64,000 nucleotides of DNA from a virus, in IMG/VR virus record IMGVR_UViG_3300007735_000802; one strand, given 5' to 3'. The notes under the pieces were generated by a model. The model was given only the letters and a program-made list of their open reading frames with translations. It had not been told where the DNA came from and did not search any database. The position numbers and the translations under genes are program-made. Of this stretch, positions 1 to 14,650 are shown in pieces (the stretch's first letter is position 1; each line of letters begins with the position of its first letter).

Positions 1-436
1 CATTCAGAATCGCATCGGCAGCATCCGACAACGAAGGCTTCATGCTGTTCTTCGTTTCCGCGAGGTACTGGTCGAAGAGATCTTCGATGCCGAGCTGACG
101 CGCGACTTCGCGAATCGACCGAAGCTCCGCATCGACATCGAACGGATTCTCGCTCCGGTACTTCGCAATCTCATCATGCACATCCTGCGCGATATCGACG
201 CAATTGTCGCTCGCGTCGTGCTGCATTCCGTAGGTATCACGGAGATTCCGCAGCAGCTTCTGCACATTGACGAGCACACGAACATCAGTCTCGCCCATGC
301 GGCCGTTCGCACCGATGTCGTTCAGCGTGTTCGTGAGATTGATGCCGATGATGTCGAGGATTCCCGCGACGACGAGCGGATTGTGCGTATTGGGAACACC
401 GTTGACCGAAAGGGGAAGATTGTGGTTGTTGCTCAT
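1..436 (-). CDS. hypothetical early protein (3' end runs off the window)
   Basis: ATG at 436 (MSNNHNLPLSVNGVPN...), open to the window edge, AGAGAG-like RBS upstream; not in the ORF track. Confidence 0.6.
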   Translation of the reverse strand, partial: MSNNHNLPLSVNGVPNTHNPLVVAGILDIIGINLTNTLNDIGANGRMGETDVRVLVNVQKLLRNLRDTYGMQHDASDNCVDIAQDVHDEIAKYRSENPFDVDAELRSIREVARQLGIEDLFDQYLAETKNSMKPSLSDAADAILN

Positions 437-468
437 TGTGTTGCTCTCTGAAAGGGGTGAAAGGTGAA

Positions 469-539
469 AGAGTCGAGCGGGAGTCGAACCCGCATTTCGT
501 CCCTTGTGGGGCGATCCTTCCATTTGGATGATCGACTCT
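469..539 (-). ncRNA. tRNA-like RNA with degenerate anticodon arm (pseudo-tRNA or tRNA mimic)
   Basis: Reverse complement gives acceptor stem GAGTCGA/TCGACTC, D-arm ATCC-AAATGGAA-GGAT and T-arm GCGGG-TTCGACT-CCCGC; the middle hairpin CGCCC-CACAAG-GGACG is not a canonical 5+7+5 arm. Confidence 0.6.
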
Positions 540-546
540 GCGAGGG

Positions 547-810
547 TCAGGCCTTGAGGCCAGCCTCCCGCAGGAACTCCGCGCGGAGCTTGTTCAGCGT
601 GTCGAGCGACGAAGTCGCATCGGCAGCGCGCTGATGCGCGATCTTGCGCTTGCGCTCCTCGACCGCGATCTTGCGGTCGATCTTCTTCATCTCCTTCGCG
701 ACCGCGTCACGGAGGAGCTGCTCGCGCAGGCTCGCGAGCGACTGAATCGGACGCGGACCCTTGCGGCTGGGGGTGCGGGTGGTGGAACCGTTAGCGTTGC
801 TGTTCTTCAT
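547..810 (-). CDS. basic coiled-coil early protein
   Basis: Start moved to ATG 810, 6 nt downstream of TATAAT (leaderless). Confidence 0.65.
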   Translation of the reverse strand: MKNSNANGSTTRTPSRKGPRPIQSLASLREQLLRDAVAKEMKKIDRKIAVEERKRKIAHQRAADATSSLDTLNKLRAEFLREAGLKA

Positions 811-816
811 GCGCTC

Positions 817-844
817 ATTATACCAAGGCCGCCATGCCATGCAA
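817..844 (-). promoter_or_regulatory. sigma70-type promoter, leaderless
   Basis: TTGCAT-16-TATAAT with extended TG; ATG 6 nt downstream. Confidence 0.65.
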
Positions 845-913
845 GCCCCTTGAAGCATAAATCTTCTCGGATTTCGTAACCCTCGAGGTGACAAGGACTT
901 ACGCGCAAAGAGG

Positions 914-1004
914 TTATTGGACCCGATTGTGGATAACTTGTGGACAGCGCACCCCGGTTGATAGTAAATTATTGGACCTAGAACTTATCCACAACTTATC
1001 CACA
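914..1004. promoter_or_regulatory. DnaA-box cluster with GTTGATAGTA and TTATTGGAC repeats between divergent promoters
   Basis: TGTGGATAA 928-936, degenerate TGTGGACAG 939-947, TTATCCACA 985-993 and 996-1004; GTTGATAGTA 957-966; TTATTGGAC 914-922 and 969-977. Confidence 0.75.
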
Positions 1005-1020
1005 TTCCGAAATGGTGGGC

Positions 1021-1049
1021 TTGACAGGGAGGGGAAAAGCTGATATTAT
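1021..1049 (+). promoter_or_regulatory. sigma70-type promoter, leaderless
   Basis: TTGACA-17-TATTAT with extended TG; ATG 1056 lies 6 nt downstream. Confidence 0.75.
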
Positions 1050-1055
1050 CAGGGA

Positions 1056-1268
1056 ATGCACAACTTCCCCAAGCATATGTACGAAATGACCGAAGCCGAG
1101 CTTATTCGCGAGCTCGGGATTCTCGAGCCGCGTGTTCGCGAGCTCTACGCGCTGCTCGACCGCGGTGAGCTGGAGTCGAAGGATCTCTTCGAGCTCAATC
1201 GCAGCGACATTCGCGCGACCATGATTCGTGCCGAGCTCGATGCGCGTTGCAATGCGGCTTGCGTCTGA
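1056..1268 (+). CDS. hypothetical early protein
   Basis: ORF directly after the promoter. Confidence 0.7.
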   Translation: MHNFPKHMYEMTEAELIRELGILEPRVRELYALLDRGELESKDLFELNRSDIRATMIRAELDARCNAACV

Positions 1269-1294
1269 TTCAATCCGAAAGAAAGAGGAAACAC

Positions 1295-1621
1295 ATGAGC
1301 GACGATGGCTACAACGGATGGAAGAACTACGAAACTTGGAATGTGAATCTCTGGATTCAGAACGACGAAGGCTTCTACAATGCAATGGTGGAAGAGCTGC
1401 GTTCGATTCTCGAATCTCACGAATGGGATTGGGAGAATGTCAGCCTTGCAGAAGTTCGCACTCTCGTTCGTGATGTCATCGGACTGAAGACTCCCGATGG
1501 CGTTCGCACTACGGATATCCTGATCGACTGGATGGAAATCTCCGATGCGCTCCTCGAGCTCGCGGAAGGCAACAACATTCCCGTGCGTGGCGAAGATTCG
1601 ACCGAAATCCCTGGCTACTAA
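1295..1621 (+). CDS. acidic conserved phage protein (YNGWxNYETWNVxLW motif)
   Basis: GAGGA RBS before ATG 1295; motif common in phage early proteins. Confidence 0.75.
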   Translation: MSDDGYNGWKNYETWNVNLWIQNDEGFYNAMVEELRSILESHEWDWENVSLAEVRTLVRDVIGLKTPDGVRTTDILIDWMEISDALLELAEGNNIPVRGEDSTEIPGY

Positions 1622-1634
1622 ATAGAGAAAGAAC

Positions 1635-1805
1635 ATGAGCTACCCACACGACGACGATTTCGATGGATACCGATACGGTCTGACCGAATCTCAGATTCGC
1701 GAAAAGCTTCGTTTCGCGATTCATGGCGACGAAGACGAAAACGACGATTTCTTCGATTCGTTCGATGATGTTGACGAATCCGAAGACGAAGATTCGGATT
1801 GGTGA
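1635..1805 (+). CDS. very acidic 56-aa protein
   Basis: MSYPHDDDFDGY...DEDENDDFFDSFDDVDESEDEDSDW; below the ORF-track cutoff; followed by a terminator. Confidence 0.65.
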   Translation: MSYPHDDDFDGYRYGLTESQIREKLRFAIHGDEDENDDFFDSFDDVDESEDEDSDW

Positions 1806-1831
1806 AATACCGATCCGTAGCTCAACGATTC

Positions 1832-1859
1832 AAACGGGATCCTTTCGGGATCCCGTTTT
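1832..1859 (+). terminator. intrinsic terminator
   Basis: AAACGGGATCC-TTTCG-GGATCCCGTTTT. Confidence 0.8.
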
Positions 1860-1860
1860 C

Positions 1861-1918
1861 GTTGATAGTATAATATGTTGATAGTATGGGCAGTTGATAG
1901 TATATACGGTTGATAGTA
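1861..1918 (+). repeat. iteron-like array, 4x GTTGATAGTA at exact 16-bp period
   Basis: Copies start at 1861, 1877, 1893 and 1909; an AT-rich tract follows. Confidence 0.9.
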
Positions 1919-2226
1919 ATTGTCATTTTCGCAATACGCTGTTTTATATTTTCAAGTAAAGTTTATTTGCGCGGTGTGGTACGCGGTGATTCGTTGCGAA
2001 TCATTGTGGATTATTGAGGAGCGGCTAAGCCTCACCCTCCCTACCACTATCCTCTAACCTTCTCTCCGGTATCCTCTACCATCGTATTGCAGTACCCTCT
2101 ACAGTCTTATACGAGAGTCTTTCCACACTTTCCCCCACATCTCCCCACTCTTTCCCACAACTTATTTGTTACCTTTACATAAAGAACAAAGATCCTTTCG
2201 GATCTTTGATATTTTGTCCTTTCTCA

Positions 2227-2655
2227 TCAGAAAAGAATGACGAGAAGCAGAACTGGAATGGCGATTAGAACAAATGCGAGAGAGCAGAGAATCAAAAGAG
2301 CGAGAATGAATACATCTGATGCTGAACTTTGACTTGGACTCTTGGTCGATTTCCATTGTGTGACATTCTTCTTTGTTCCGTTCAATGCATGAATGGTGTC
2401 TTCGTATGAGAAGAAGAGAGAATCGACGGGATCGGTGATTGATGTGGTATCGGGTTGAGGAGACTTTCGGGAAATCTTTCCTTCTCTTACCAGTCGATCT
2501 TCTTCAAGAGAGAGAAACATTTCGATGTCTGTGGGTACATATTCGGCATCGGAAGTGTTTGGTTTGGCATTTACCATCTCTGCGTACTGGCGAGATGCAA
2601 TGTCTGTCTGTACACGAAGAAAGTCTTCGAGGGATGATTCAATCTTGTTCGTCAT
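2227..2655 (-). CDS. hypothetical protein with C-terminal transmembrane segment
   Basis: C-terminal VFILALLILCSLAFVLIAIPVLLLVILF. Confidence 0.55.
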   Translation of the reverse strand: MTNKIESSLEDFLRVQTDIASRQYAEMVNAKPNTSDAEYVPTDIEMFLSLEEDRLVREGKISRKSPQPDTTSITDPVDSLFFSYEDTIHALNGTKKNVTQWKSTKSPSQSSASDVFILALLILCSLAFVLIAIPVLLLVILF

Positions 2656-2800
2656 CTTGGGTACTGGAGTCTTCCTATGCGAGCGAGCATATCGAATCGA
2701 AACAGGTCACACACTTCTTCTGATTGTGAGATTGCTTTCTGAGGAGGAGGAGGTGATTCATTTACCTTCTCCATCAGCGTATCCCAAAAGGCGTACTTGT

Positions 2801-2944
2801 CTATCGGTTGTTCCTTCGATTCTGCTCCTCGAGCTTGTCCTGAATCTTTCGGAGAGTGTTTGCGATGTCGTTGATTTGCCATACGATGGAACCGATGATA
2901 TAGGCGGTTGCGAGTGCGAACAGGACGAGAAAGAAGGTATCCAT
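2801..2944 (-). CDS. small single-pass membrane protein
   Basis: MDTFFLVLFALATAYIIGSIVWQINDIANTLRKIQDKLEEQNRRNNR; AAGGA RBS. Confidence 0.55.
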   Translation of the reverse strand: MDTFFLVLFALATAYIIGSIVWQINDIANTLRKIQDKLEEQNRRNNR

Positions 2945-2955
2945 GAGAGATTTCC

Positions 2956-3054
2956 TTAGTTGTCGAATAGGTCAATCCCGAAGATTGACATTAGAACGGA
3001 AGCGGTCAGAGCGAGCACGATGAAGATCACGATGAATGAAACGAGAAGACTCAT
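2956..3054 (-). CDS. small membrane peptide
   Basis: MSLLVSFIVIFIVLALTASVLMSIFGIDLFDN; ATGA overlap with the upstream gene. Confidence 0.55.
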   Translation of the reverse strand: MSLLVSFIVIFIVLALTASVLMSIFGIDLFDN

Positions 3055-3410
3055 GCGAGAATGACCCCGGAGAAGCGAGCGACATATGAGAATGCGTCTT
3101 TGGTGCGATTGCGGTAGATGCGAATGGAATCCGATTCCGAAGACATCAGCATTTCGGTGTTCGGGTCGATGTGCGTCTGAAGAATGAACCATGTGTCTTC
3201 ACCCTGCACCATTTCACGAAACAGAATGCAGACAGGAATCTGATCGGACTCAAGCTTGAATCCCTTGGGGTAGACGAGCGATTCGTAGTCGCGGTGAATG
3301 TAGCATGAGTACAGATCCGAGAACATCGAACGAGTCTTCTCGTCTTCGCGAAACAGCAGATGATCGGGAAGAAGAGAGCGAAGGTGCTGCATTGAAGTCG
3401 GTGTAATCAA
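3051..3410 (-). CDS. hypothetical early protein
   Basis: Coupled ORF in the minus-strand operon. Confidence 0.6.
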   Translation of the reverse strand: MITPTSMQHLRSLLPDHLLFREDEKTRSMFSDLYSCYIHRDYESLVYPKGFKLESDQIPVCILFREMVQGEDTWFILQTHIDPNTEMLMSSESDSIRIYRNRTKDAFSYVARFSGVILA

Positions 3411-3691
3411 GTGAGTTCTCCGTATTCGATTCCAGTTTCGGGATCGGTGTCTGCAATCAGAATCTCGTCTCGCTGAATGACGGCGATCTTGCGTCCGAGT
3501 TCAGTTTCGGGAGTCAGATGCGGGCTCGAGGAGTGATTCACCGGAACACCATTGCGAGTGAGAAGGTAGAATCCGTCCACGATTCCATCCTCGACTCCAT
3601 CTTCGAGGAGCGAAAGAAGACGATGATACCGATGCGATTCGATATCGACTGCGATAATGAGACGAGTGTGATTGTTTCCGCTGTCAGTCAT
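3407..3691 (-). CDS. hypothetical early protein
   Basis: Coupled ORF in the minus-strand operon. Confidence 0.6.
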   Translation of the reverse strand: MTDSGNNHTRLIIAVDIESHRYHRLLSLLEDGVEDGIVDGFYLLTRNGVPVNHSSSPHLTPETELGRKIAVIQRDEILIADTDPETGIEYGELT

Positions 3692-4523
3692 TGAGAGTCA
3701 CCATGTTGTCGTAGTTGCGATAAGCAGGACACGCGATGTGGTATCCGAAGTCGATGCAGACAGGATTTCCGTTCCATAGTCCGAGATTGCCACGATGAAG
3801 ATCGTTCATCATGTACGGATTGTCGTCTTCATTCCATGTCTCACCAAGGCGAAGACGAGGATTCTTCCATGCGTCTTCGCTTGTGTCCGTTTCGGACAGA
3901 TCGTCGTACTGCGTATTTCCAATGTCGAGTTCCATGATTCGGTACTTCAGCGACATGGGATCACGAACCGCGTCGATGGCATTGAACGAATCCATCCAGT
4001 TCGACTCTTCGTTCACATCGGCATCAATCGACTTCCAAAACTTCTTGACGGAAGACTTGGACATGGAGCGAAGACCGTAGAACCGAATGTAGTTCAGATA
4101 CATACCCTGAATCACCGGAGAACCAAGAATCTCTGCACAGAGACGACCGTGTTCGGTGCAGTCTGCATTGCAAGACTCGTACCCCCAACGATTGCGAGTA
4201 CGAGCCTTGTTCGTTCGTGGACGCACAATCCACAGAACCATCTTGCCAACAGGAGGAGCGAGTCCTTCGTCTGCTGCAATCTTTTGCCGCTGCCATGCGG
4301 CATACGCTTCAATCGAAGTGTTGAACATCTTGATGGCGTACTGGTTTGGATTGTTGACTTCTGCACCATTCGGAAAGAAGTCAGACTGGCATCCCGAATC
4401 ACGCGAAACAGGCATTCCCCGCATCTCGTACACCTTGACATCACCCATGATCGGGTGCGTCATTGTGCGAGTGGAAGTGAAATGCGGATACGATCCGTTC
4501 TGATTGTGTGGCACAGTTTCCAT
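3684..4523 (-). CDS. protein-kinase-like fold protein
   Basis: YAIKMF (beta3 Lys), NDLHRGN catalytic loop, CIDFG; start placed at ATG 4523, downstream of the promoter. Confidence 0.65.
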   Translation of the reverse strand: METVPHNQNGSYPHFTSTRTMTHPIMGDVKVYEMRGMPVSRDSGCQSDFFPNGAEVNNPNQYAIKMFNTSIEAYAAWQRQKIAADEGLAPPVGKMVLWIVRPRTNKARTRNRWGYESCNADCTEHGRLCAEILGSPVIQGMYLNYIRFYGLRSMSKSSVKKFWKSIDADVNEESNWMDSFNAIDAVRDPMSLKYRIMELDIGNTQYDDLSETDTSEDAWKNPRLRLGETWNEDDNPYMMNDLHRGNLGLWNGNPVCIDFGYHIACPAYRNYDNMVTLND

Positions 4524-4563
4524 ATCTCGAGCTCTCTTGAAGGGTTGCGAGTTGTGAGATGGC

Positions 4564-4592
4564 ATTATACCATAAATCCGGTTCGTTGTCAA
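4564..4592 (-). promoter_or_regulatory. sigma70-type early promoter (leadered)
   Basis: TTGACA-17-TATAAT with extended TG. Confidence 0.8.
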
Positions 4593-4605
4593 GTCGAGCG
4601 AGACA

Positions 4606-4809
4606 TCAGTACGGTCGATTGCTTGGAGAGGTCACGAACATTCGGAAGATGTTGGGGTAGTTGCCATCATCGTCCATGAATGCTTCATTGCTGCACTCGT
4701 TGACAATGAAATCCTCGAGCTCGAGCAGTTCCGCATCGGTCAGTTCGTTCAGCATATCGTTGATCGCCGTCCGAATGTTTTCGGTCTTGCTGTTCATTTC
4801 TTCGCTCAT
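4606..4809 (-). CDS. acidic hypothetical protein
   Basis: Likely start MSEEMNSK after AGGAG RBS. Confidence 0.6.
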   Translation of the reverse strand: MSEEMNSKTENIRTAINDMLNELTDAELLELEDFIVNECSNEAFMDDDGNYPNIFRMFVTSPSNRPY

Positions 4810-5330
4810 CAGACATTCTCCTTCCGGTTTGCGTCCTCGAAGTAAATCTCGTTCGGTTCCGAGTAGTGAACTTCGGTACGAATCACATCCTGCGCATAGA
4901 ACTTGCCATTCTCCCACAACCAACGCCAACGCTCACCATCTTCGCCCTTCACATCAACGAAGCATCCGTGAATGACCACGGGAGCAATGGCAGCGAAGAA
5001 CTTCTCTTCGTCACCAATCTTCGATTCACCACCACGAATGTCGAGGTAGAAGTGGGTAATGCCATTCTCCTCATTGGTGATCTCAAGATCGTATCCCCAA
5101 CACTCGAAAACGCGAATGATGTCACGATCCGCAACCGCCTTGCGGACATCTTCGGTATTCACCCACGAATACCACCAAGACGACTGCTTGTCGTTTGCAT
5201 AACATCCACCGTTGCCATTCTCTTCAAGATTCTTGTCGCTCATCAGATTGGCAACAAGATCGAAGAAGCGGGGAAGATCCGAAGTGCGAATGGAGAACGA
5301 AGTCTGCGGAGTGCTGATGTAGTAACCCAT
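4809..5330 (-). CDS. conserved phage protein
   Basis: Likely start MGYY after AAGGA; motif KIGDEEKFF...GEDGERWRW. Confidence 0.7.
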   Translation of the reverse strand: MGYYISTPQTSFSIRTSDLPRFFDLVANLMSDKNLEENGNGGCYANDKQSSWWYSWVNTEDVRKAVADRDIIRVFECWGYDLEITNEENGITHFYLDIRGGESKIGDEEKFFAAIAPVVIHGCFVDVKGEDGERWRWLWENGKFYAQDVIRTEVHYSEPNEIYFEDANRKENV

Positions 5331-5346
5331 TGTGTGTTTCCTTCTT

Positions 5347-5592
5347 TCAGAGAGACTTGTCGGTGATGCGAACGGCTTCGTGCATGGAATCCTCAATCGG
5401 TTCCACCATGTCTGTAATACCTTCTTCGATCTTGTTGAGATGACTGCAAATCTCATTCATGTTGATGTCTCCATCCATGATCCTGCTATGCAGATTGTCG
5501 ATCATGTCGATAACCCGATTCGCCTTTGCATCGACGCGAATGAGATTCTTTGCGGGAACCGAAACGGACTTGCTGATCTTCTTGGTCTTCAT
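5347..5592 (-). CDS. hypothetical helical protein (resembles 45908-46129)
   Basis: AAGGAAG RBS; shared IxDGxI...LxxIxExI pattern. Confidence 0.65.
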   Translation of the reverse strand: MKTKKISKSVSVPAKNLIRVDAKANRVIDMIDNLHSRIMDGDINMNEICSHLNKIEEGITDMVEPIEDSMHEAVRITDKSL

Positions 5593-5604
5593 GTCTTCCT
5601 TCTT

Positions 5605-5907
5605 TCAGAGATTCGGATTGATCGTGCTTGCGACGAAGATGAACTTGGCAACCTGATCGGTCGTGAGTCGCGCGAGGACATTCTCACCGTAGTAGTCGAA
5701 ACCTTCGACATGAACCCAAGCGTGAGTATCCGCGTTCCACGCAGCGCACTCTGCGGTCGTCTTGCCGTCAGAGTAGTTGCCTTCTCCCCAACGAACGGAA
5801 ACGGTCACGCGATTGGTGAAAGTCATCGTGAATCCACGGTTGACACGATGCGGTTCAAGATTGAAACGCGCGAGAGAATCGGAAATGGTGCTGTCCTCGG
5901 TCATCAT
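5605..5907 (-). CDS. hypothetical early protein, leaderless
   Basis: ATG 6 nt after TATAAT. Confidence 0.7.
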   Translation of the reverse strand: MMTEDSTISDSLARFNLEPHRVNRGFTMTFTNRVTVSVRWGEGNYSDGKTTAECAAWNADTHAWVHVEGFDYYGENVLARLTTDQVAKFIFVASTINPNL

Positions 5908-5913
5908 GCGTGT

Positions 5914-5942
5914 ATTATACCATAAATCGGGGTGCTTGTCAA
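5914..5942 (-). promoter_or_regulatory. sigma70-type promoter, leaderless
   Basis: TTGACA-17-TATAAT with extended TG. Confidence 0.85.
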
Positions 5943-6418
5943 GTCCAGTCCCTACTTGCGCGTTCATCCGCAAGGGTAGTCTCGCAAGCATCACAGATGG
6001 AATGCGGAAATGGTTGATCGCGGTCGAGGCGGAATGCCTCGCCGCAATGCCCACAGACTCGTTCGGACATTGCCTCTACCATCGAAACCATACCGTCGAT
6101 GAAGATGCAAGTCTCACGAATCTTTACCATTTCGCTCTCGTCAAGGTTCTCGGCGTAGTGGAAGTCGAGATAGAAGCGAAGAGAACCGTACTTCTCCTTC
6201 ACCTGTACCGCGACTGGTTGGAACTGACGATTCGGATGCATTCGATTGATGAAGTCGCAATGAGACTGAATCGAACCGCAGAGTGCTTCGATGAGATTGA
6301 ACCACCCATCTCCACACTCAAACCCGAATGCCATGCAAGTATCCTTCACATCTCCCCCGTAGTCAGAGAAGAGTTTGGGATACTTGGCGACGAGTTGCTG
6401 CTCTAGCTCGAGTTTCAT
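5939..6418 (-). CDS. conserved phage protein with C-terminal zinc finger
   Basis: FECGDGW, QVKEKYGSLRFY, CGHCG...CDAC. Confidence 0.75.
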   Translation of the reverse strand: MKLELEQQLVAKYPKLFSDYGGDVKDTCMAFGFECGDGWFNLIEALCGSIQSHCDFINRMHPNRQFQPVAVQVKEKYGSLRFYLDFHYAENLDESEMVKIRETCIFIDGMVSMVEAMSERVCGHCGEAFRLDRDQPFPHSICDACETTLADERASRDWT

Positions 6419-6681
6419 TACTGATCCACCTCGACACGAACCTTGAAGTAGTTCTCCCTACCCGAATCTTCGACCATGATCGAAGTGATCTTGCCGAATC
6501 CGTAATCCTCTCCGACGAAGAGAGCATTTCCGTTTAGGACTCCACCTTCGGCATCGAACATATTCTCTGCCCCGCGATTGTAGCGAGACACACCTTCGAT
6601 GGTGTAGATTCCGTGTCCATTGTCGGTCACGAATCGTTCGAGTCCGTATCGTGCCATGTACTTGCGCTTTGTCGTGTTCAT
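6418..6681 (-). CDS. hypothetical early protein
   Basis: GAGGA RBS before ATG 6681. Confidence 0.6.
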   Translation of the reverse strand: MNTTKRKYMARYGLERFVTDNGHGIYTIEGVSRYNRGAENMFDAEGGVLNGNALFVGEDYGFGKITSIMVEDSGRENYFKVRVEVDQ

Positions 6682-6689
6682 TGTGTTCC

Positions 6690-6869
6690 TCAAATGGTGA
6701 TTTCGGTCAGATCGTCAACGATGGTGATGTTGTCTCGCGCTTCGTCCCATTCTTCGGTTTCCTCGAAATGCTTGGCGACACGATCCACATTGATCGGTTT
6801 GTCGCTCTTGATTCGATAAACGAACGGAGAACAGTTGCGAAACTCAACGATTGCGATTGCTTCAAACAT
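6690..6869 (-). CDS. 59-aa hypothetical protein
   Basis: MFEAIAIVEFRNCSPFVYRIKSDKP...; fills the gap between coupled genes. Confidence 0.6.
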   Translation of the reverse strand: MFEAIAIVEFRNCSPFVYRIKSDKPINVDRVAKHFEETEEWDEARDNITIVDDLTEITI

Positions 6870-7082
6870 TTATCTTGCCCTCGCGTATTCGCGGTTCAGT
6901 CGTCGTGCGTCTTCATTGTTACGCGCAATGAAGAGTTCACAATCTGCCTTGTGTGAGTAGATGATTCGTGCCACGGACTTGAAGGTGTGCTTGTCGGCAC
7001 AACCGACACAGTATTCCGTATCGGGAAAGAACTCAAGTCGAGCAGCAGGAATCTCGTTGCCACAGTCGAAACACTTACACAT
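6870..7082 (-). CDS. TraR/DksA-type C4 zinc-finger protein
   Basis: CFDCGNEIPAARLEFFPDTEYCVGCA. Confidence 0.8.
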   Translation of the reverse strand: MCKCFDCGNEIPAARLEFFPDTEYCVGCADKHTFKSVARIIYSHKADCELFIARNNEDARRLNREYARAR

Positions 7083-7320
7083 TGCGGGTCTTGCTCCTCA
7101 TTTCGTCAAGAGTGTCGCGGTAGTCCGCGCAGACATCACGAAAGCGGTTGATGAATGCGTGAAGTGCCACAGACATCTCTTCCTGATTCGACATCTGAAG
7201 AATGGAAACAGTTGCTTCCATCTCCTTGATGAGATCATCGTCACTCATCATGTCGTAGTAGTCGTACACGGTGTCGCGGGTGTCGTCATTCGGAATCATT
7301 GGGGTACAACTCACTTTCAA
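7075..7320 (-). CDS. acidic hypothetical protein
   Basis: Coupled ORF; start uncertain. Confidence 0.55.
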   Translation of the reverse strand: MKVSCTPMIPNDDTRDTVYDYYDMMSDDDLIKEMEATVSILQMSNQEEMSVALHAFINRFRDVCADYRDTLDEMRSKTRNV

Positions 7321-7522
7321 TCTGATGCATCAGAGTTTCGATGTGGTGAATCTGTTCCTCGAGCTGAGCGATTCGGTCTTCGGAGCTCGAGTAGTATCCA
7401 CCATTTGCAATCGCAAAGAGAGAATGAAGATTTCCACGAAGGAAACCATATGCGTATGCGTATTGAGCCTGGGAACTACGCGGAATGATGCGCGGAGGAG
7501 TGACGGAAGTCTCGGTTTGCAT
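7286..7522 (-). CDS. hypothetical early protein, leaderless
   Basis: ATG 7522 lies 6 nt after TATAAT. Confidence 0.65.
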   Translation of the reverse strand: MQTETSVTPPRIIPRSSQAQYAYAYGFLRGNLHSLFAIANGGYYSSSEDRIAQLEEQIHHIETLMHQIESELYPNDSE

Positions 7523-7528
7523 GGGCAT

Positions 7529-7557
7529 ATTATACCACAAACGACTGCGGTTGTCAA
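7529..7557 (-). promoter_or_regulatory. sigma70-type promoter, leaderless
   Basis: TTGACA-17-TATAAT with extended TG. Confidence 0.85.
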
Positions 7558-7559
7558 GA

Positions 7560-8012
7560 TCAATGCGAAGTGCGGTGTTCTGCATTGCAGCAGTCTGCTT
7601 CGATGCGCTTGTCGCAAGTGCGACAAACCGTAGCAGACTCTCCCTTGTTTGCTGATGCGATATCGCACGGGAGTTCAGCGTAGAAGAACTCATTGCCATT
7701 CTCAATCGCGTCACCGCAATCGTCGCACCAGTATTGTGTGGTCTTCACATCTTCCCAACCAACGAAAGAGAGTCCATCCCATCCCATCGACAGCGCAATA
7801 TCCTGCGGAGTCTGTTCGGGATGATCGACATACCCTTCGCGGTGATCAACAGCGACGAACTCGCAGTAGAGCATACGAGCATCATCACGCTCTGCGATCA
7901 GGTTCTCAATCAGATTGGCAGACTCAACGAGATTCTGAATCTGTTCGGGTTCAAAGTCTGCGTTGTTCGCTGCTGCAAAATCACGAAGGAAGTTTGCGAG
8001 ATTGTGGTTCAT
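7560..8012 (-). CDS. ERDxAR-family protein with C-terminal zinc finger
   Basis: AERDDARMLYC...MGWDGL; CDDC...CRTC. Confidence 0.7.
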   Translation of the reverse strand: MNHNLANFLRDFAAANNADFEPEQIQNLVESANLIENLIAERDDARMLYCEFVAVDHREGYVDHPEQTPQDIALSMGWDGLSFVGWEDVKTTQYWCDDCGDAIENGNEFFYAELPCDIASANKGESATVCRTCDKRIEADCCNAEHRTSH

Positions 8013-8200
8013 GCGTTCTCCTTGTTGTCCATTGCGCGAAGACGGCGAACGACCTCGGCAAGAGCGAGATAGTCGTATCGGTCAATCTCATATCCACCGA
8101 ATCCCTCTTCGTTGGAGATGTTCTCAATCCAGTTTGCGAGTTCGTCGTTGCACATATTGTGCGCGTCGATGCGAGTCAAATCGTATTCGTTCTTGGTCAT
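8009..8200 (-). CDS. hypothetical protein
   Basis: Coupled ORF. Confidence 0.6.
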   Translation of the reverse strand: MTKNEYDLTRIDAHNMCNDELANWIENISNEEGFGGYEIDRYDYLALAEVVRRLRAMDNKENA

Positions 8201-8439
8201 GCGTAACTCACTTTCGAGAAAGATTGCTTGATGGTTCGTCGTTCGATGAATGCTTCGCCATCAGCTCGAGCATTCCGTTCCTTCGTGATCTTCTTTCCGA
8301 TTCCGAATGGTTTGCAGATGGTGCGATTGTGCTTCACTACTGCCGCACCTTCGCGCTCTGCTTCCATGTCGAAACGATCAATCACTCGCTTGGGCATTGG
8401 TTCCTCCGATACCACAAGTCTTTGCTGCACAGAGTTCAC
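8197..8439 (-). CDS. hypothetical basic protein
   Basis: Coupled ORF. Confidence 0.5.
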   Translation of the reverse strand: MNSVQQRLVVSEEPMPKRVIDRFDMEAEREGAAVVKHNRTICKPFGIGKKITKERNARADGEAFIERRTIKQSFSKVSYA

Positions 8440-8698
8440 GGAGATTCAGAATCTCAATCGACTGCGCGACAATGACTCGGTGAGTCTCTGCGAGCTTTTG
8501 CGAAAGTTTGATGTTCTGAACACAAACATTGTCGTAGTTCTTCTTGACTTCACGGAGAGTTTCATCCGATTCACGGAGCTCATCACTCACCGAGTCGAGT
8601 GCTGCGAGTGCTGATGCAACATCATCAAATCCCTGCATATGGAGAAGATCCATGTCGTACTTGCGCTGATTGTTCTTTTCGTTCTTAGGCATTGTCAT
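8378..8698 (-). CDS. coiled-coil hypothetical protein
   Basis: Start MTMPKNEK after AGGAG. Confidence 0.55.
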   Translation of the reverse strand: MTMPKNEKNNQRKYDMDLLHMQGFDDVASALAALDSVSDELRESDETLREVKKNYDNVCVQNIKLSQKLAETHRVIVAQSIEILNLRELCAAKTCGIGGTNAQASD

Positions 8699-8942
8699 TC
8701 TCCTTCGGAAAGCAGTCCCATCCCATTTCGTTGGCAATCTCTTCAACAGACATTCGACCATTTCGCGCGAGGTGATACTCATTGCACAGAGTGCGCCTCG
8801 CCTCGTCGCGCTCTTCACGCAGTTGCTTGAGCATCTTTACTGCGTGATACTCGTAGGAACTCTGTTCGGGATTCGTGTATCCCATGACCTTGACCGCCAT
8901 TTCAAAGTAGCGAATGAGTCCGTCGATTGAGTAGTCGCTCAT
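8685..8942 (-). CDS. ERDxAR-family protein
   Basis: EERDEARRTLC...MGWDCF. Confidence 0.7.
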   Translation of the reverse strand: MSDYSIDGLIRYFEMAVKVMGYTNPEQSSYEYHAVKMLKQLREERDEARRTLCNEYHLARNGRMSVEEIANEMGWDCFPKENDNA

Positions 8943-8943
8943 A

Positions 8944-9417
8944 TCAGACCGCCTTTCGGGGGTAAGTGTTGTAGTAGTACGGAATCACGCGATAGAACTG
9001 CTGCGTCATGCCGCTGAAGTGACAAGTCCATTCATCCCATGGATTGTCACAATACATACTGCTATTGAGTGGATTCGCAATCACATCCTGCGGAGTCCAT
9101 CCCTGCGCCTTCGTCTTCTTCCAATCTGCGCGCGCAGTTTCAAGATCGGGGAAATGAGAACCCTTCGACCTGTACCAAATGCCCTCATTACCCAAGACCC
9201 AATCGTAGAAACGAATCTCATTGGGAACCCACGGATTCGGAGTGTAGACACGCGCGAACTGCATTCCGTACTCGTTCACGGGAGAAACGAGCGCGTAGGT
9301 ACGCGGAATGTCAAAGTCGTGGAAAGTGTGCATTGCGTGAGGATAATCTCCCGCAACAAACGGAGTATGGACAAACGCAGGACGGGTAGAACCGATCTTG
9401 ACCTTCATCGTCTTCAT
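8944..9417 (-). CDS. hypothetical early protein, leaderless
   Basis: ATG 9417 lies 6 nt after TATAAT. Confidence 0.7.
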   Translation of the reverse strand: MKTMKVKIGSTRPAFVHTPFVAGDYPHAMHTFHDFDIPRTYALVSPVNEYGMQFARVYTPNPWVPNEIRFYDWVLGNEGIWYRSKGSHFPDLETARADWKKTKAQGWTPQDVIANPLNSSMYCDNPWDEWTCHFSGMTQQFYRVIPYYYNTYPRKAV

Positions 9418-9423
9418 GGGTGT

Positions 9424-9452
9424 ATTATACCACAAATGGGTGCGAGTGTCAA
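9424..9452 (-). promoter_or_regulatory. sigma70-type promoter, leaderless
   Basis: TTGACA-17-TATAAT with extended TG. Confidence 0.85.
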
Positions 9453-9456
9453 GCGA

Positions 9457-10173
9457 TTAGTGCTTGTGGTAAGTCACGGTTGCGACATTGCGATCCCAAC
9501 ACGCGCGACAATCGCGGCATTCGTTCGACTGAGAAGGTGCGAGACACGCGAACGAACCACGCGAACGCGCATTCTCCATTGCGGAGTCATTCGATGCGAC
9601 TTCCGACGAATGCTCGAAGTCATTCGGTGCAGACGAGTCGAGCATTGCCGCAGAAACGCGAACGGTGAGATTCGCGGGAAACTCACCGAACATCTCGCGG
9701 TACTTGCGAACAATCGCATACTCGCGCGTAGGAAGCCAGTGCTTCACATTTGGAGTCATTTCGCAGACTTGCACGATGTTGATGAGATGAGAGAGCGACT
9801 GCAAATCGCCCGAATCGTGCCAACGGAAATACGAAACCTTCTTGCACTTCTTTCCGATGACATACGCCATCGCTGCGACCCAACGCGAATCGAAGAGCGC
9901 GTTGTACCTACGCTCCATTGCCTTCTTTGTATTGGGGTAGTTGTAACTACCCTTGCAAGCGTAGCACTTCTCGCAAGTCGAACCCTTCACCTTTCGCAGC
10001 TTGGAACCGACATTGCAACGCTTCGCGGAGATGCTGGTACTCCAGCCTGGCATCTTGGAAGGCTTCGAAAGACCACCGACGATATCTTCGGCTTCGGAAT
10101 GATCGAAACTCGTTTCGGGATTGTGAATCGGAATAGCGCGAGTAGGAGCCTGGACGAGACTGTAAGTAACCAT
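9457..10173 (-). CDS. Gp88-like Cys-rich (probable Fe-S) phage protein
   Basis: GGLSKPSKMPG, C...CEKCYA, YFRWHDSGD, HWLPTRE, CRDCRACW. Confidence 0.8.
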   Translation of the reverse strand: MVTYSLVQAPTRAIPIHNPETSFDHSEAEDIVGGLSKPSKMPGWSTSISAKRCNVGSKLRKVKGSTCEKCYACKGSYNYPNTKKAMERRYNALFDSRWVAAMAYVIGKKCKKVSYFRWHDSGDLQSLSHLINIVQVCEMTPNVKHWLPTREYAIVRKYREMFGEFPANLTVRVSAAMLDSSAPNDFEHSSEVASNDSAMENARSRGSFACLAPSQSNECRDCRACWDRNVATVTYHKH

Positions 10174-10179
10174 TCCGGT

Positions 10180-10245
10180 AAGCTACCATAAACTTTCCCG
10201 CGTGTCAAGCCCTAACTTCCCGGAATGTGGATAACTTGTGGGTGA
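10180..10245 (-). promoter_or_regulatory. leaderless promoter with upstream DnaA box
   Basis: TTGACA-17-TAGCTT, ATG 6 nt downstream; perfect DnaA box 10226-10234 and degenerate box 10237-10245. Confidence 0.7.
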
Positions 10246-10298
10246 ATCTTATGCAAGGTAGGACTGCATATTCATTCATGCATATTCACACACACCGC

Positions 10299-10335
10299 GT
10301 TGATAGTAGTTGATAGTACACAAATGTTGATAGTA
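10299..10335 (+). repeat. 3x GTTGATAGTA cluster at a GC/AT boundary
   Basis: Copies at 10299, 10309 and 10326; TGCATATTCA x2 just upstream. Confidence 0.85.
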
Positions 10336-10347
10336 CACCCCCTATCT

Positions 10348-10875
10348 TTATTTTTCTCCAATAGAATCATGTATATAATAATTTGGGAATCTAGCCTTTA
10401 GCTCTCTCATAATAGCATCAAGAGAACTATTTGAAAAATAGTTTCGATGATTTGTGTTCATGCTTATCACTCTTCGATCATGATCTATTCTTCCGTATAC
10501 ATGAGGATGTGATTTATATGCTCCATTATCCGTGGTATAATATGCGTCAGGAAATAAATCAGCGTGTGTTTGTTCCATGTTTTGTATTGGTCTTATCGCT
10601 ACCAAATTTTCATTATTTTTTATTTCTTTTTTGATTGATGGACCAGCAGCCCACAGATGTGGTAATTTACCTTGATCAGATACTCCCCACACATCTCTTT
10701 TTATTTTGGCAAGTTCTGCCATTTTATTATCGTCGATTGGACCTAAATAACTCTCATCATCGTGACCAACATTAAGATATGTAGAGTTTACTTGTGGAAT
10801 TCTACTTTCTCTTCTTCTTCGTTGCTCTTCGCGAAATCGTTCTACTGATTCAAGTAGTTGTTTAAATTTGATCAT
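10348..10875 (-). CDS. putative internal head protein
   Basis: MIKFKQLLESVE leader; TATAGATA late-type promoter 5 nt upstream. Confidence 0.65.
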   Translation of the reverse strand: MIKFKQLLESVERFREEQRRRRESRIPQVNSTYLNVGHDDESYLGPIDDNKMAELAKIKRDVWGVSDQGKLPHLWAAGPSIKKEIKNNENLVAIRPIQNMEQTHADLFPDAYYTTDNGAYKSHPHVYGRIDHDRRVISMNTNHRNYFSNSSLDAIMRELKARFPNYYIHDSIGEK

Positions 10876-10892
10876 AATAGTATCTATAAATG

Positions 10893-10916
10893 AAAACCCC
10901 CCTTGCGGGGGGTTTT
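10893..10916. terminator. intrinsic terminator (symmetric)
   Basis: AAAACCCCCC-TTGC-GGGGGGTTTT. Confidence 0.8.
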
Positions 10917-10918
10917 GT

Positions 10919-12343
10919 TTAGGTAGCGACATACGGTGCTAGTGCAGGAGAATCTGGTGGTTCTTCTCCGGTTTCATTGTAATATAACCCACCACCAACA
11001 CCAAGTCCAAATCCAATTCCTTGATTTTCTATATTTGGCGCGATGTGTGCTGGTGCATTTGGATCACGATAGTGATCGAATGCTCTTCTGGAGACTAATC
11101 CGTTACCTCTCCAATCAAATGATCTAGAATCTCCAAGTTTTCTATAAACAAATTGACCAGTTGCTTCATCATATGCCCAGAAATGCCAGAATCCATTCGT
11201 GTCTTGATAATAAATTCCATCTTCTCGAACTTGTAACCAAGTATCTTGAGTTTGTTTCAATAAATCGGAAGTACCAACTAACGGTTTTGGAAGATCTGGT
11301 CTTGGTCTTGGTATGCTTAATTTATTAATTTTCATCCATCTATACAATAACTCTTTTGCTTGATCCTCTGTTAAATCCTCCCATACCAGTCTTCTTCCAA
11401 AAATAGATCCAATTCCACCCGGACCTCTTCCGGGTGGCCTGACTGGAGTATTACCACCACCATGTGGTGGTGCAGCTTCTAATATCGTTACTTCTTTCAA
11501 TTGTTCAAATAATCTATGTTTATAGTAATTTTTGATATTTTCATTTATGTTTTGCATATAGCTACTTTCGAATAATCTGTTTGGATCTGGAGGTCTAAGT
11601 CTTGTTGGATCTAAGCTAGGAGGAGTAAATACGGGGGGCATGTTTGGATTTTCAACTTGTCCAGGCCTATTTCTCACATGTAATGGACTTCTTTCCCATT
11701 GACCACTGTTTGGATTCCATTGATACCAATCATGTGGTTGTCCTCTTTCAAATGCTGGATTTGGTCTGTATTGCCATTCATTTGGGTTATATCCTTCTTC
11801 GCTTGGGTCATTTGGATTCCACCATCCGGGAGGTGGACCTTGAATTGGCGGTCCACCTCCCGGTGGGAAATAACCGGGATGTGTGTACCAAAGAGGTGGT
11901 GGATCATTGGGATTCGCATACCATGGATCAAGAGTAATTGGTCCGGCCGGACCTTCTGGTGCGGTATCTGTGCCACCAAAAACATCGACTTCATCTGGTA
12001 TTACCCAATATGGAAGTTGCCCTGGTGTTATTAAAATTGGGGGATATGGAGCTTTAGGATCTGGTGAAATATGATCAGGATGGTCCGCAGGAAGTCTATA
12101 TCTTCTTAACAAATCTCTAAGTTGTCTTCTCACTTCATCCTTCTGCTTATCTAAACGAGGAGGATTCATCCATCTATCATTCCCATATATGCTAGGATCG
12201 AAAGGGGGTTTTGGAGGAGCAGTACCGGAACTTGATGGTGGTGCATATCCAGGAACATTTGGATTTTGCGTTGGTGGAATTACAGGATCTGATTGCACAG
12301 TATCTTCTGTTATAGATTTGATGAATTTATTAAAACTTTTCAT
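10919..12343 (-). CDS. Pro-rich putative internal head (poly)protein
   Basis: MKSFNKFIKSITE leader; internal RLFES/RLFEQ/ILEA sites; TATACATA upstream. Confidence 0.65.
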   Translation of the reverse strand: MKSFNKFIKSITEDTVQSDPVIPPTQNPNVPGYAPPSSSGTAPPKPPFDPSIYGNDRWMNPPRLDKQKDEVRRQLRDLLRRYRLPADHPDHISPDPKAPYPPILITPGQLPYWVIPDEVDVFGGTDTAPEGPAGPITLDPWYANPNDPPPLWYTHPGYFPPGGGPPIQGPPPGWWNPNDPSEEGYNPNEWQYRPNPAFERGQPHDWYQWNPNSGQWERSPLHVRNRPGQVENPNMPPVFTPPSLDPTRLRPPDPNRLFESSYMQNINENIKNYYKHRLFEQLKEVTILEAAPPHGGGNTPVRPPGRGPGGIGSIFGRRLVWEDLTEDQAKELLYRWMKINKLSIPRPRPDLPKPLVGTSDLLKQTQDTWLQVREDGIYYQDTNGFWHFWAYDEATGQFVYRKLGDSRSFDWRGNGLVSRRAFDHYRDPNAPAHIAPNIENQGIGFGLGVGGGLYYNETGEEPPDSPALAPYVAT

Positions 12344-14512: not shown

Positions 14513-14650
14513 ATATTATACCAAAATATAAGTTCCTGTCAATACCTTTTGTGTCATTTTTTGAACTTATCGGACGGGTTGATAGTATTATTATCGGACT
14601 CAAAATATGGGATGTTTCGTATTGACTCAAAGAATAAATTATGGTATAAT
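14513..14650. promoter_or_regulatory. divergent sigma70 promoters flanking TTATCGGAC-GTTGATAGTA-TTATCGGAC
   Basis: Minus: TTGACA 14542-14537, TATAAT 14520-14515. Plus: TTGACT 14622, TATAAT 14645. Motif 14578-14587. Confidence 0.8.

Follow-up and report, generated by a model that had tools for sequence, protein, structure and literature searches.

Exact DnaA boxes stand at a fixed distance from, and in one orientation to, a small set of early promoters in an uncultured freshwater T4-like phage and its relatives. We give slightly better than even chances to the reading that host DnaA modulates, and probably activates, these few early promoters, which have weak −10 elements and would drive leaderless genes; the phage would thus probably make these early genes respond to host state. 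DnaA binding, the direction of its effect and the transcription start sites we infer from the sequence. The DNA analysed, hereafter the window, is a 64,000-nucleotide part of the phage genome (IMG/VR record IMGVR_UViG_3300007735_000802). It encodes a gp43-type DNA polymerase with 48% identity to cyanomyophage gp43, which bears out the T4-like label of a first-pass annotation, and also a ribonucleotide reductase, tail fibres and a clamp-loader-like ATPase.

Exact boxes in the early block

The G+C content is ~50% in the first 10.3 kb of the window and ~35% in the remainder, with the junction at ~10.3 kb (window 1-10340 versus the rest). A chimera with a host oriC fragment, against which the first-pass annotation had cautioned, was rejected, as the junction and the motifs recur in independent assemblies: gene order, the GC junction and the phage-specific word GTTGATAGTA are shared by contigs L230, L275, L280 and others. 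L230, the nearest viral contig, runs collinear with positions 466-10192 of the window, passes through the same GC junction into AT-rich DNA and carries the same GTTGATAGTA arrays, and some twenty metagenome contigs from other samples have the junction region in common. The GC junction is therefore real, given that independent assemblies share it. The genes flanking the box region are phage genes.

Four exact copies of the DnaA box (consensus TT(A/T)TNCACA, ideally TTATCCACA) were found in the window, all of them intergenic and all within the early block. A first-order Markov model over both strands predicts 0.83 exact boxes for the whole window and only 0.047 for the GC-rich block 1-10400, for which the probability of finding at least four is ~2e-7. 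One-mismatch boxes showed no excess (20 seen versus 22.5 expected), and it is thus the exact boxes, with the way they are arranged, that carry the signal.

Box pairs and divergent promoters

Three of the exact boxes lie in the 245-bp gap between a leftward gene (547-810) and a rightward gene (1056-1268). The left pair, on the minus strand, consists of an outer, strong box, the perfect TGTGGATAA at 928-936 (found by direct reading and pattern search), and an inner, degenerate one, TGTGGACAG at 939-947, which reads CTGTCCACA on the minus strand, matches at 7/9 positions and keeps CCACA. The right pair, on the plus strand, consists of two perfect TTATCCACA boxes, the promoter-distal one at 985-993 and the promoter-proximal one at 996-1004, which ends 16 nt before the −35 element. 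Within each pair 2 bp separate the boxes, giving an 11-bp period, and the whole array places four boxes in 77 bp as two opposed pairs. The phage-specific word GTTGATAGTA (957-966, plus strand) lies between the two pairs. Repeat and sequence searches further detected two plus-strand copies of the word TTATTGGAC, at 914-922 and 969-977, and the exact 10-mer TTATTGGACC of the first copy recurs at 969 as a direct repeat at a distance of 55 bp. A 20-nt inverted repeat links 925-944 with 988-1007 (90% complementary, 43 nt between the arms; repeat search), and the degenerate box at 939-947 overlaps its left arm.

The first-pass annotation had described boxes at 928, 939, 985 and 996 in 11-bp pairs around a central GTTGATAGTA, and every one of these elements is in its place; the divergent early promoters that it claimed around them are both good sigma70 consensus matches. 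The rightward promoter (1021-1049) comprises TTGACA at 1021-1026, a 17-nt spacer with a TG extension and a weak −10, TATTAT, at 1044-1049. The leftward promoter (844-817, minus strand) comprises TTGCAT at 844-839, a 16-nt spacer and TATAAT at 822-817. Only 176 bp separate the two, and the left box pair, 83 nt upstream of the leftward −35, is at an activator-like distance from neither. Each start codon, ATG 1056 rightward and ATG 810 leftward, comes 6 nt past its −10.

The rightward gene encodes a 70-aa protein without assigned function (p70), whose mRNA is probably leaderless because its ATG follows so closely on the −10. The leftward gene, apparently leaderless as well, encodes by its open reading frame and translation a small basic coiled-coil protein of 87 aa. 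This protein has 82 homologues, mostly of 87-105 aa, and no match in Pfam, NCBIfam or PDB profile searches; the JGI name "negative regulator of replication initiation", carried by a homologue of 94% identity, was accordingly set aside, as those three databases give it no backing.

The same promoter type recurs in the window, at 4592, 5942, 7557, 9452, 14542 (−) and 14622 (+) besides 844 (−), 1021 (+) and 10208 (−). The early promoters are near-perfect matches to TTGACA-N17-TGgTATAAT, and all but that at 4592 have the ATG 6-9 nt past the −10. Because of this short distance, most early mRNAs of the phage should be leaderless. All seven box-less early promoters in the window have TATAAT, and the box-linked ones combine a perfect −35 and a TG extension with a weak −10 (TATTAT at p70 and TAGCTT at the promoter of a GP88-family gene).

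The sister module and its conservation

The fourth perfect box, TTATCCACA at 10234-10226 (minus strand), belongs to a sister module in front of the GP88-family gene. Its degenerate partner, TCACCCACA at 10245-10237, lies 2 bp (ag) away, and 17 nt after the perfect box comes a minus-strand promoter (10208-10180) with TTGACA at 10208-10203, a 17-nt spacer and TAGCTT at 10185-10180. The gene itself (10173-9457, minus strand) starts with an ATG 6 nt past TAGCTT. A third copy was found in L230 at 2080-2101, before a paralogue of the small basic protein. One layout is thus present at three promoters, those of window p70 (16 nt from box to TTGACA), window GP88 (17 nt) and L230.

Relatives of the sister module were retrieved through the GP88 protein, which yielded 20 contigs with 74-99% protein identity and readable upstream DNA. 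The box unit was detected upstream of the GP88-family gene in 18 of these 20 metagenome contigs (16 distinct promoter sequences). Seventeen distinct promoter sequences were compared, drawn from the GP88 promoters of the relatives (16), window p70 and L230; the window GP88 promoter is identical to that of L274. At least one perfect TTATCCACA stands in register in 17/17, in 15 of them at the proximal position, and in several promoters two or three boxes follow one another at 11-bp intervals. The box unit points in one orientation and ends 16-17 nt before TTGACA in all 17. Mean pairwise identity was 94% for the proximal box and 72% for the distal box, falling to 50% in the 14 nt after the box. 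Furthermore, of 24 exact boxes in 76 kb of the relatives' contigs, where 0.6 were expected, 23 are at the GP88 promoter and in the orientation of the gene. The GP88 promoters of the relatives have the same short layout from −10 to ATG, and their distinct −10 elements are TAGCTT (9), TAGAAT (3), TAGCCT (2), TAGCAT (1) and TATAAT (1). The one relative with TATAAT, L287, has nevertheless kept the box.

The variation within the sites follows the DnaA consensus, with the fifth base free, A or T at the third and CACA nearly invariant. Across the 17 promoters, positions 4 and 6-9 of the proximal box are invariant and T is permitted at position 5, and positions 6-9 of the distal box are retained in 15-17. 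The tolerated variants, TTATTCACA, TTTTCCACA, TCATTCACA and others that keep CCACA, all fit TT(A/T)TNCACA.

Two relatives, L254 and L329, have TCCGATAA words in place of the boxes, which are therefore dispensable. In the GP88 tree L254 falls, at weak support, within the group that has boxes, and its position thus looks like a cassette replacement. Among 44 distant GP88 homologues, no consensus box was found within 330 nt upstream. This rules out that boxes generally accompany GP88 genes and indicates that they belong to the phage lineage and its promoter rather than to the gene family. The exact boxes of G003, G006 and L293 (at 1368), which are more distant relatives, were also discounted: each is single, lies in coding DNA and is compatible with chance.

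Phage-specific words and other possible binders

At the site syntenic to 914-1049, no DnaA box was found in L230 or L338, the sole two readable relatives and both distant ones (56% and 39% protein identity to the window, respectively, for the leftward gene). The boxes, whose conservation in relatives the first-pass annotation had left to be checked, are kept at the sister module and absent from the syntenic site in these two distant contigs. Both carry GTTGATAGTA and TTATCGGAC words there. L338 has a perfect dyad upstream of its small-basic-protein homologue, GTTGATAGTA-N5-TTATCGGAC-g-GTCCGATAA-aa-TACTATCAAC, which points to a dimeric phage regulator as its binder.

The window has 11 exact copies of GTTGATAGTA, all on the plus strand, and 14 sites with up to one mismatch versus ~4.6 expected. 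Composite sites of TTATYGGAC and GTTGATAGTA were observed in L338 (1-60), in the window (914-977 and 14567-14599) and in L230 (4091-4112 and 10891-10931), and in some relatives these words occupy the place taken by DnaA boxes in the window's lineage. Since L230 and L338 carry the words without boxes, the control regions of this group would seem to consist of phage operator words, to which, or in place of which, a single sublineage has taken up DnaA boxes. A search of viral contigs with the leftward protein, singly and as an alignment, matched only the contig of L230; genome contigs searched for relatives of 914-1049 gave no match, and nothing near 914-1049 was found among GenBank phages. At the protein level, close homologues of the genes of the locus do exist (P0001-P0085).

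Such words raise the question of whether the box word, too, is read by a protein other than DnaA, either an early regulator of the phage or a host factor with an equal site. In favour of this, GTTGATAGTA and TTATYGGAC share the control regions and must have binders of their own, TTATCGGAC words replace the boxes in L254, L329, L230 and L338 as if the binders were interchangeable, and most early proteins have no assigned function. We nevertheless hold it to be unlikely. All 17 distinct promoters have the exact high-affinity DnaA box, and the variants obey the DnaA consensus at the free fifth base, the A/T third and the fixed CACA. R1/R4-type boxes are bound by DnaA with an affinity of ~1 nM (PMC5835720), and occupancy of such sites, with nanomolar affinity, is therefore expected in any host with a canonical DnaA. 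Furthermore, Pfam scans detected no DnaA-like domain in 20 early-block proteins, and neither a DnaA domain IV-like fold nor another DNA-binding domain was seen among these 20, which represent a part of the phage genome; with PHROGs returning families of unknown function only, a phage DnaA-like binder was rejected within this set.

Proposed role of DnaA at the early promoters

With host DnaA as the preferred binder, the 9-mers would be true host DnaA binding sites and DnaA would be used as a transcription factor. In one sublineage of freshwater T4-like phages a two-box unit, one box perfect and its partner 2 bp off, is joined to an early promoter of sigma70 type. Both boxes of the unit point towards the promoter, with 16-17 nt between the end of the unit and TTGACA. 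Provided that the A of the ATG is the transcription start, the centre of the unit would lie near −61.5, the classic place of an upstream (class I) activator. Bound DnaA may then help RNA polymerase at promoters with a weak −10, and expression of p70 and of the GP88-family gene at 10.2 kb would follow the level of DnaA, or its ATP state, during infection. The regulation of early promoters, which was among the roles that the first-pass annotation proposed, gains good, if indirect, support from the fixed spacing and orientation at three promoters and from the sister unit in 18/20 relatives.

The direction of the effect may be judged from the polarity of the unit, in which the weak partner sits 5′ of the strong box at 2-bp spacing. 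DnaA oligomers in oriC grow from a strong box towards weak sites on its 5′ side, and Rozgaja et al. reportedly described in 2011 that the low-affinity arrays of E. coli oriC have their weak sites 5′ of a strong box with 2-bp spacing. Oligomer growth from the strong box would lead off the core promoter, and activation thus fits better than occlusion. Contacts between DnaA and RNA polymerase, and regulation of lambda pR by DnaA, are documented (PMC3017604 and its reference 35). For the left inverted pair, cooperative DnaA binding would be the most likely role, or else the pair may be a relic of an inverted cassette duplication.

Origin, sink and cassette shuffling as alternatives

The opposed pairs could also be a mini oriC-like region, serving as a DnaA-dependent origin or acting, in the manner of lambda pR, through transcriptional activation of the module at 1861-2165. 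R1 and R4 are outermost in E. coli oriC and point outward, and the pairs here likewise face outward, the outermost box being a strong one. A cluster of DnaA boxes, as an origin should have, is present with the four boxes in 77 bp, and the region's lowest GC content over 30 nt (27%) is that of the spacer between the pairs. Arrays of GTTGATAGTA are close to the boxes, which are 0.9 kb from 1861-2165, a candidate origin module in which TTGTG words are phased at 10 bp, both in the window and in L230, and the box-linked promoters are the outermost ones of two transcription units converging on this module. However, four consensus promoters without boxes likewise transcribe towards 1861-2165, no AT-rich unwinding element lies beside the boxes, where the flanks are 49-52% GC, and a scan of 781-1100 found no DnaA-trio-like repeat, IHF consensus or GATC site. 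Moreover, what is conserved is the distance to the −35, not that to any unwinding element, and T4-type replication starts without DnaA: T4 itself initiates from R-loops and recombination intermediates. We thus regard an origin-like region as quite unlikely. That the opposed arrays work as a mini oriC, so that host DnaA would license phage replication directly or via transcription of 1861-2165, is very unlikely; if true, it would give T4-type phages their first case of an initiation step that depends on DnaA.

The first-pass annotation had also suggested a datA-like sink that blocks host initiation; as phage genomes multiply, the boxes would titrate or inactivate host DnaA. With at least four perfect boxes per genome, 100 copies would rival the roughly 300 consensus DnaA boxes of the E. 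coli chromosome (PMC5835720). Yet a sink needs neither fixed spacing to the −35 nor fixed orientation, and exactly these are conserved, so that the promoter spacing would be left unexplained. The IHF site essential to a datA-like element was not found either, there being no IHF consensus, only 4-6 boxes are present in 64 kb, and some relatives manage without boxes. A sink is therefore very improbable.

Another possibility is that only the right pair is functional and that the inverted arrangement is a by-product of cassette shuffling, the left pair being a stranded copy, or that the pairs have a T5-like role and hold the DNA at the membrane through DnaA. The module does recur at non-homologous places before different genes, and the box-less L254 within the box-bearing clade suggests, at weak support, that cassettes are replaced. 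In addition, TTATTGGACC, repeated directly at 55 bp, and the 20-nt inverted repeat both resemble duplication products. Recombining early-promoter cassettes are known in RB49 and phi1 (PMC2839356), and in T5-like phages DnaA boxes are retained as inverted pairs whose role is unproven (bioRxiv 10.1101/866236). Against this stands the left pair itself, which retains a perfect box and a weak partner 2 bp 5′ of it, an arrangement that decay would soon erase, and we accord this explanation a very low probability.

Comparison with known systems

T4-type phages are the textbook case of a takeover by own factors, with replication that proceeds without DnaA. DnaA is a transcription factor at the E. coli dnaA, nrdAB and other promoters, and the temperate phage lambda has DnaA boxes downstream of pR. 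Compared with pR, the phage described here is a T4-like phage of virulent type with a repeated two-box cassette at a fixed 16-17 nt upstream of the −35 of probably leaderless early genes. The likeness lies in consensus 9-mers beside a sigma70 promoter, as in the DnaA-regulated promoters that include lambda pR, a phage promoter already known to respond to DnaA (Glinkowska et al. 2003, as cited in PMC3017604).

T5-like phages have paired DnaA boxes in the first-step-transfer region, where the box was first noted in 1987 (Davison, bioRxiv 10.1101/866236). They resemble our phage in being virulent, in replicating independently of DnaA and in having conserved pairs within inverted repeats, perfect TTATCCACA included. 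They differ in having eight boxes with 3-bp pair spacing, in two inverted-repeat sets, within an untranslated terminal-repeat region at the injection stop, whereas the window has four boxes with 2-bp spacing, locked to promoters, and no sign of a terminal repeat. In E. coli oriC, the two low-affinity arrays, R1 to I2 and R4 to C3, likewise face opposite ways, each with a strong box, placed outermost, and weak boxes 5′ of it at 2 bp; the array here spans 77 bp with four boxes and is without an unwinding element, an IHF or Fis site, or a GATC cluster.

Sites of a host global regulator in a lytic phage are also found at the early promoters of phi29 and Nf, which carry Spo0A boxes and so make phage development dependent on the state of the host (PMC2731898). 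Spo0A represses phi29, whereas here the factor would be DnaA, the host group is another one, and the proposed effect is activation. Closest in genome type are the PeSL elements of RB49 and phi1 (PMC2839356), intergenic cassettes of ~60-100 bp with a sigma70-like early promoter before small genes without known function, which occur in T4-type genomes with a distribution suggesting shuffling. A PeSL, however, is AT-rich in its upstream part and contains a GC stem-loop and a Shine-Dalgarno sequence, in place of which the cassette described here has DnaA boxes and neither stem-loop nor leader.

Full-text literature searches found no account of T4-type or uncultured phages in which DnaA boxes hold a fixed place upstream of promoters, and the only published phage precedents found were the T5 box pairs and lambda pR. 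In viral contigs, by comparison with a chance expectation of ~0.1 (from a rough estimate of collection size), the exact tandem 20-mer TTATCCACAACTTATCCACA (TTATCCACA-ac-TTATCCACA) was present in 119 unrelated ones (L001-L119) of very different G+C, many of them with arrays of three to six boxes repeated every 11 bp. DnaA-box arrays are therefore common in phage DNA, as the tandem occurs in viral contigs of so many kinds, and the T4-type case may be an instance of a widespread and essentially undescribed phage habit. If DnaA does act at these promoters, a T4-type phage would read the replication and growth status of its host from the first minute of infection.

Other features of the early block

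TTGTG recurs at an exact 10-bp period in the window (1961-2015) and in L230 (4231-4290, five copies), beside a GTTGATAGTA array. These words match the CACAA half of DnaA-box-like words, and TAATCCACA at 2005-2013 (minus strand) is one mismatch from the DnaA box.

Two observations bear on the host. Relatives of the GP88-family gene sit in phages of Alphaproteobacteria and Acinetobacter, and a 64% homologue of the small basic protein occurs in a Candidatus Nanopelagicaceae MAG, which is a weak hint.

Rfam matched no family on window 1-12000. ARAGORN reported a tRNA-like gene with a two-base anticodon (tRNA-???) at 468-539 (minus strand), without an Rfam match at the gathering threshold; it adjoins the gene of the small basic protein, as it does in L230 (about 3590-3660). 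Lastly, the product of window 6870-7082 (minus strand), 70 aa long, contains a C4 zinc finger of the DksA/TraR type (Pfam E 1e-9); within the early block it is a candidate for binding the secondary channel of RNA polymerase.
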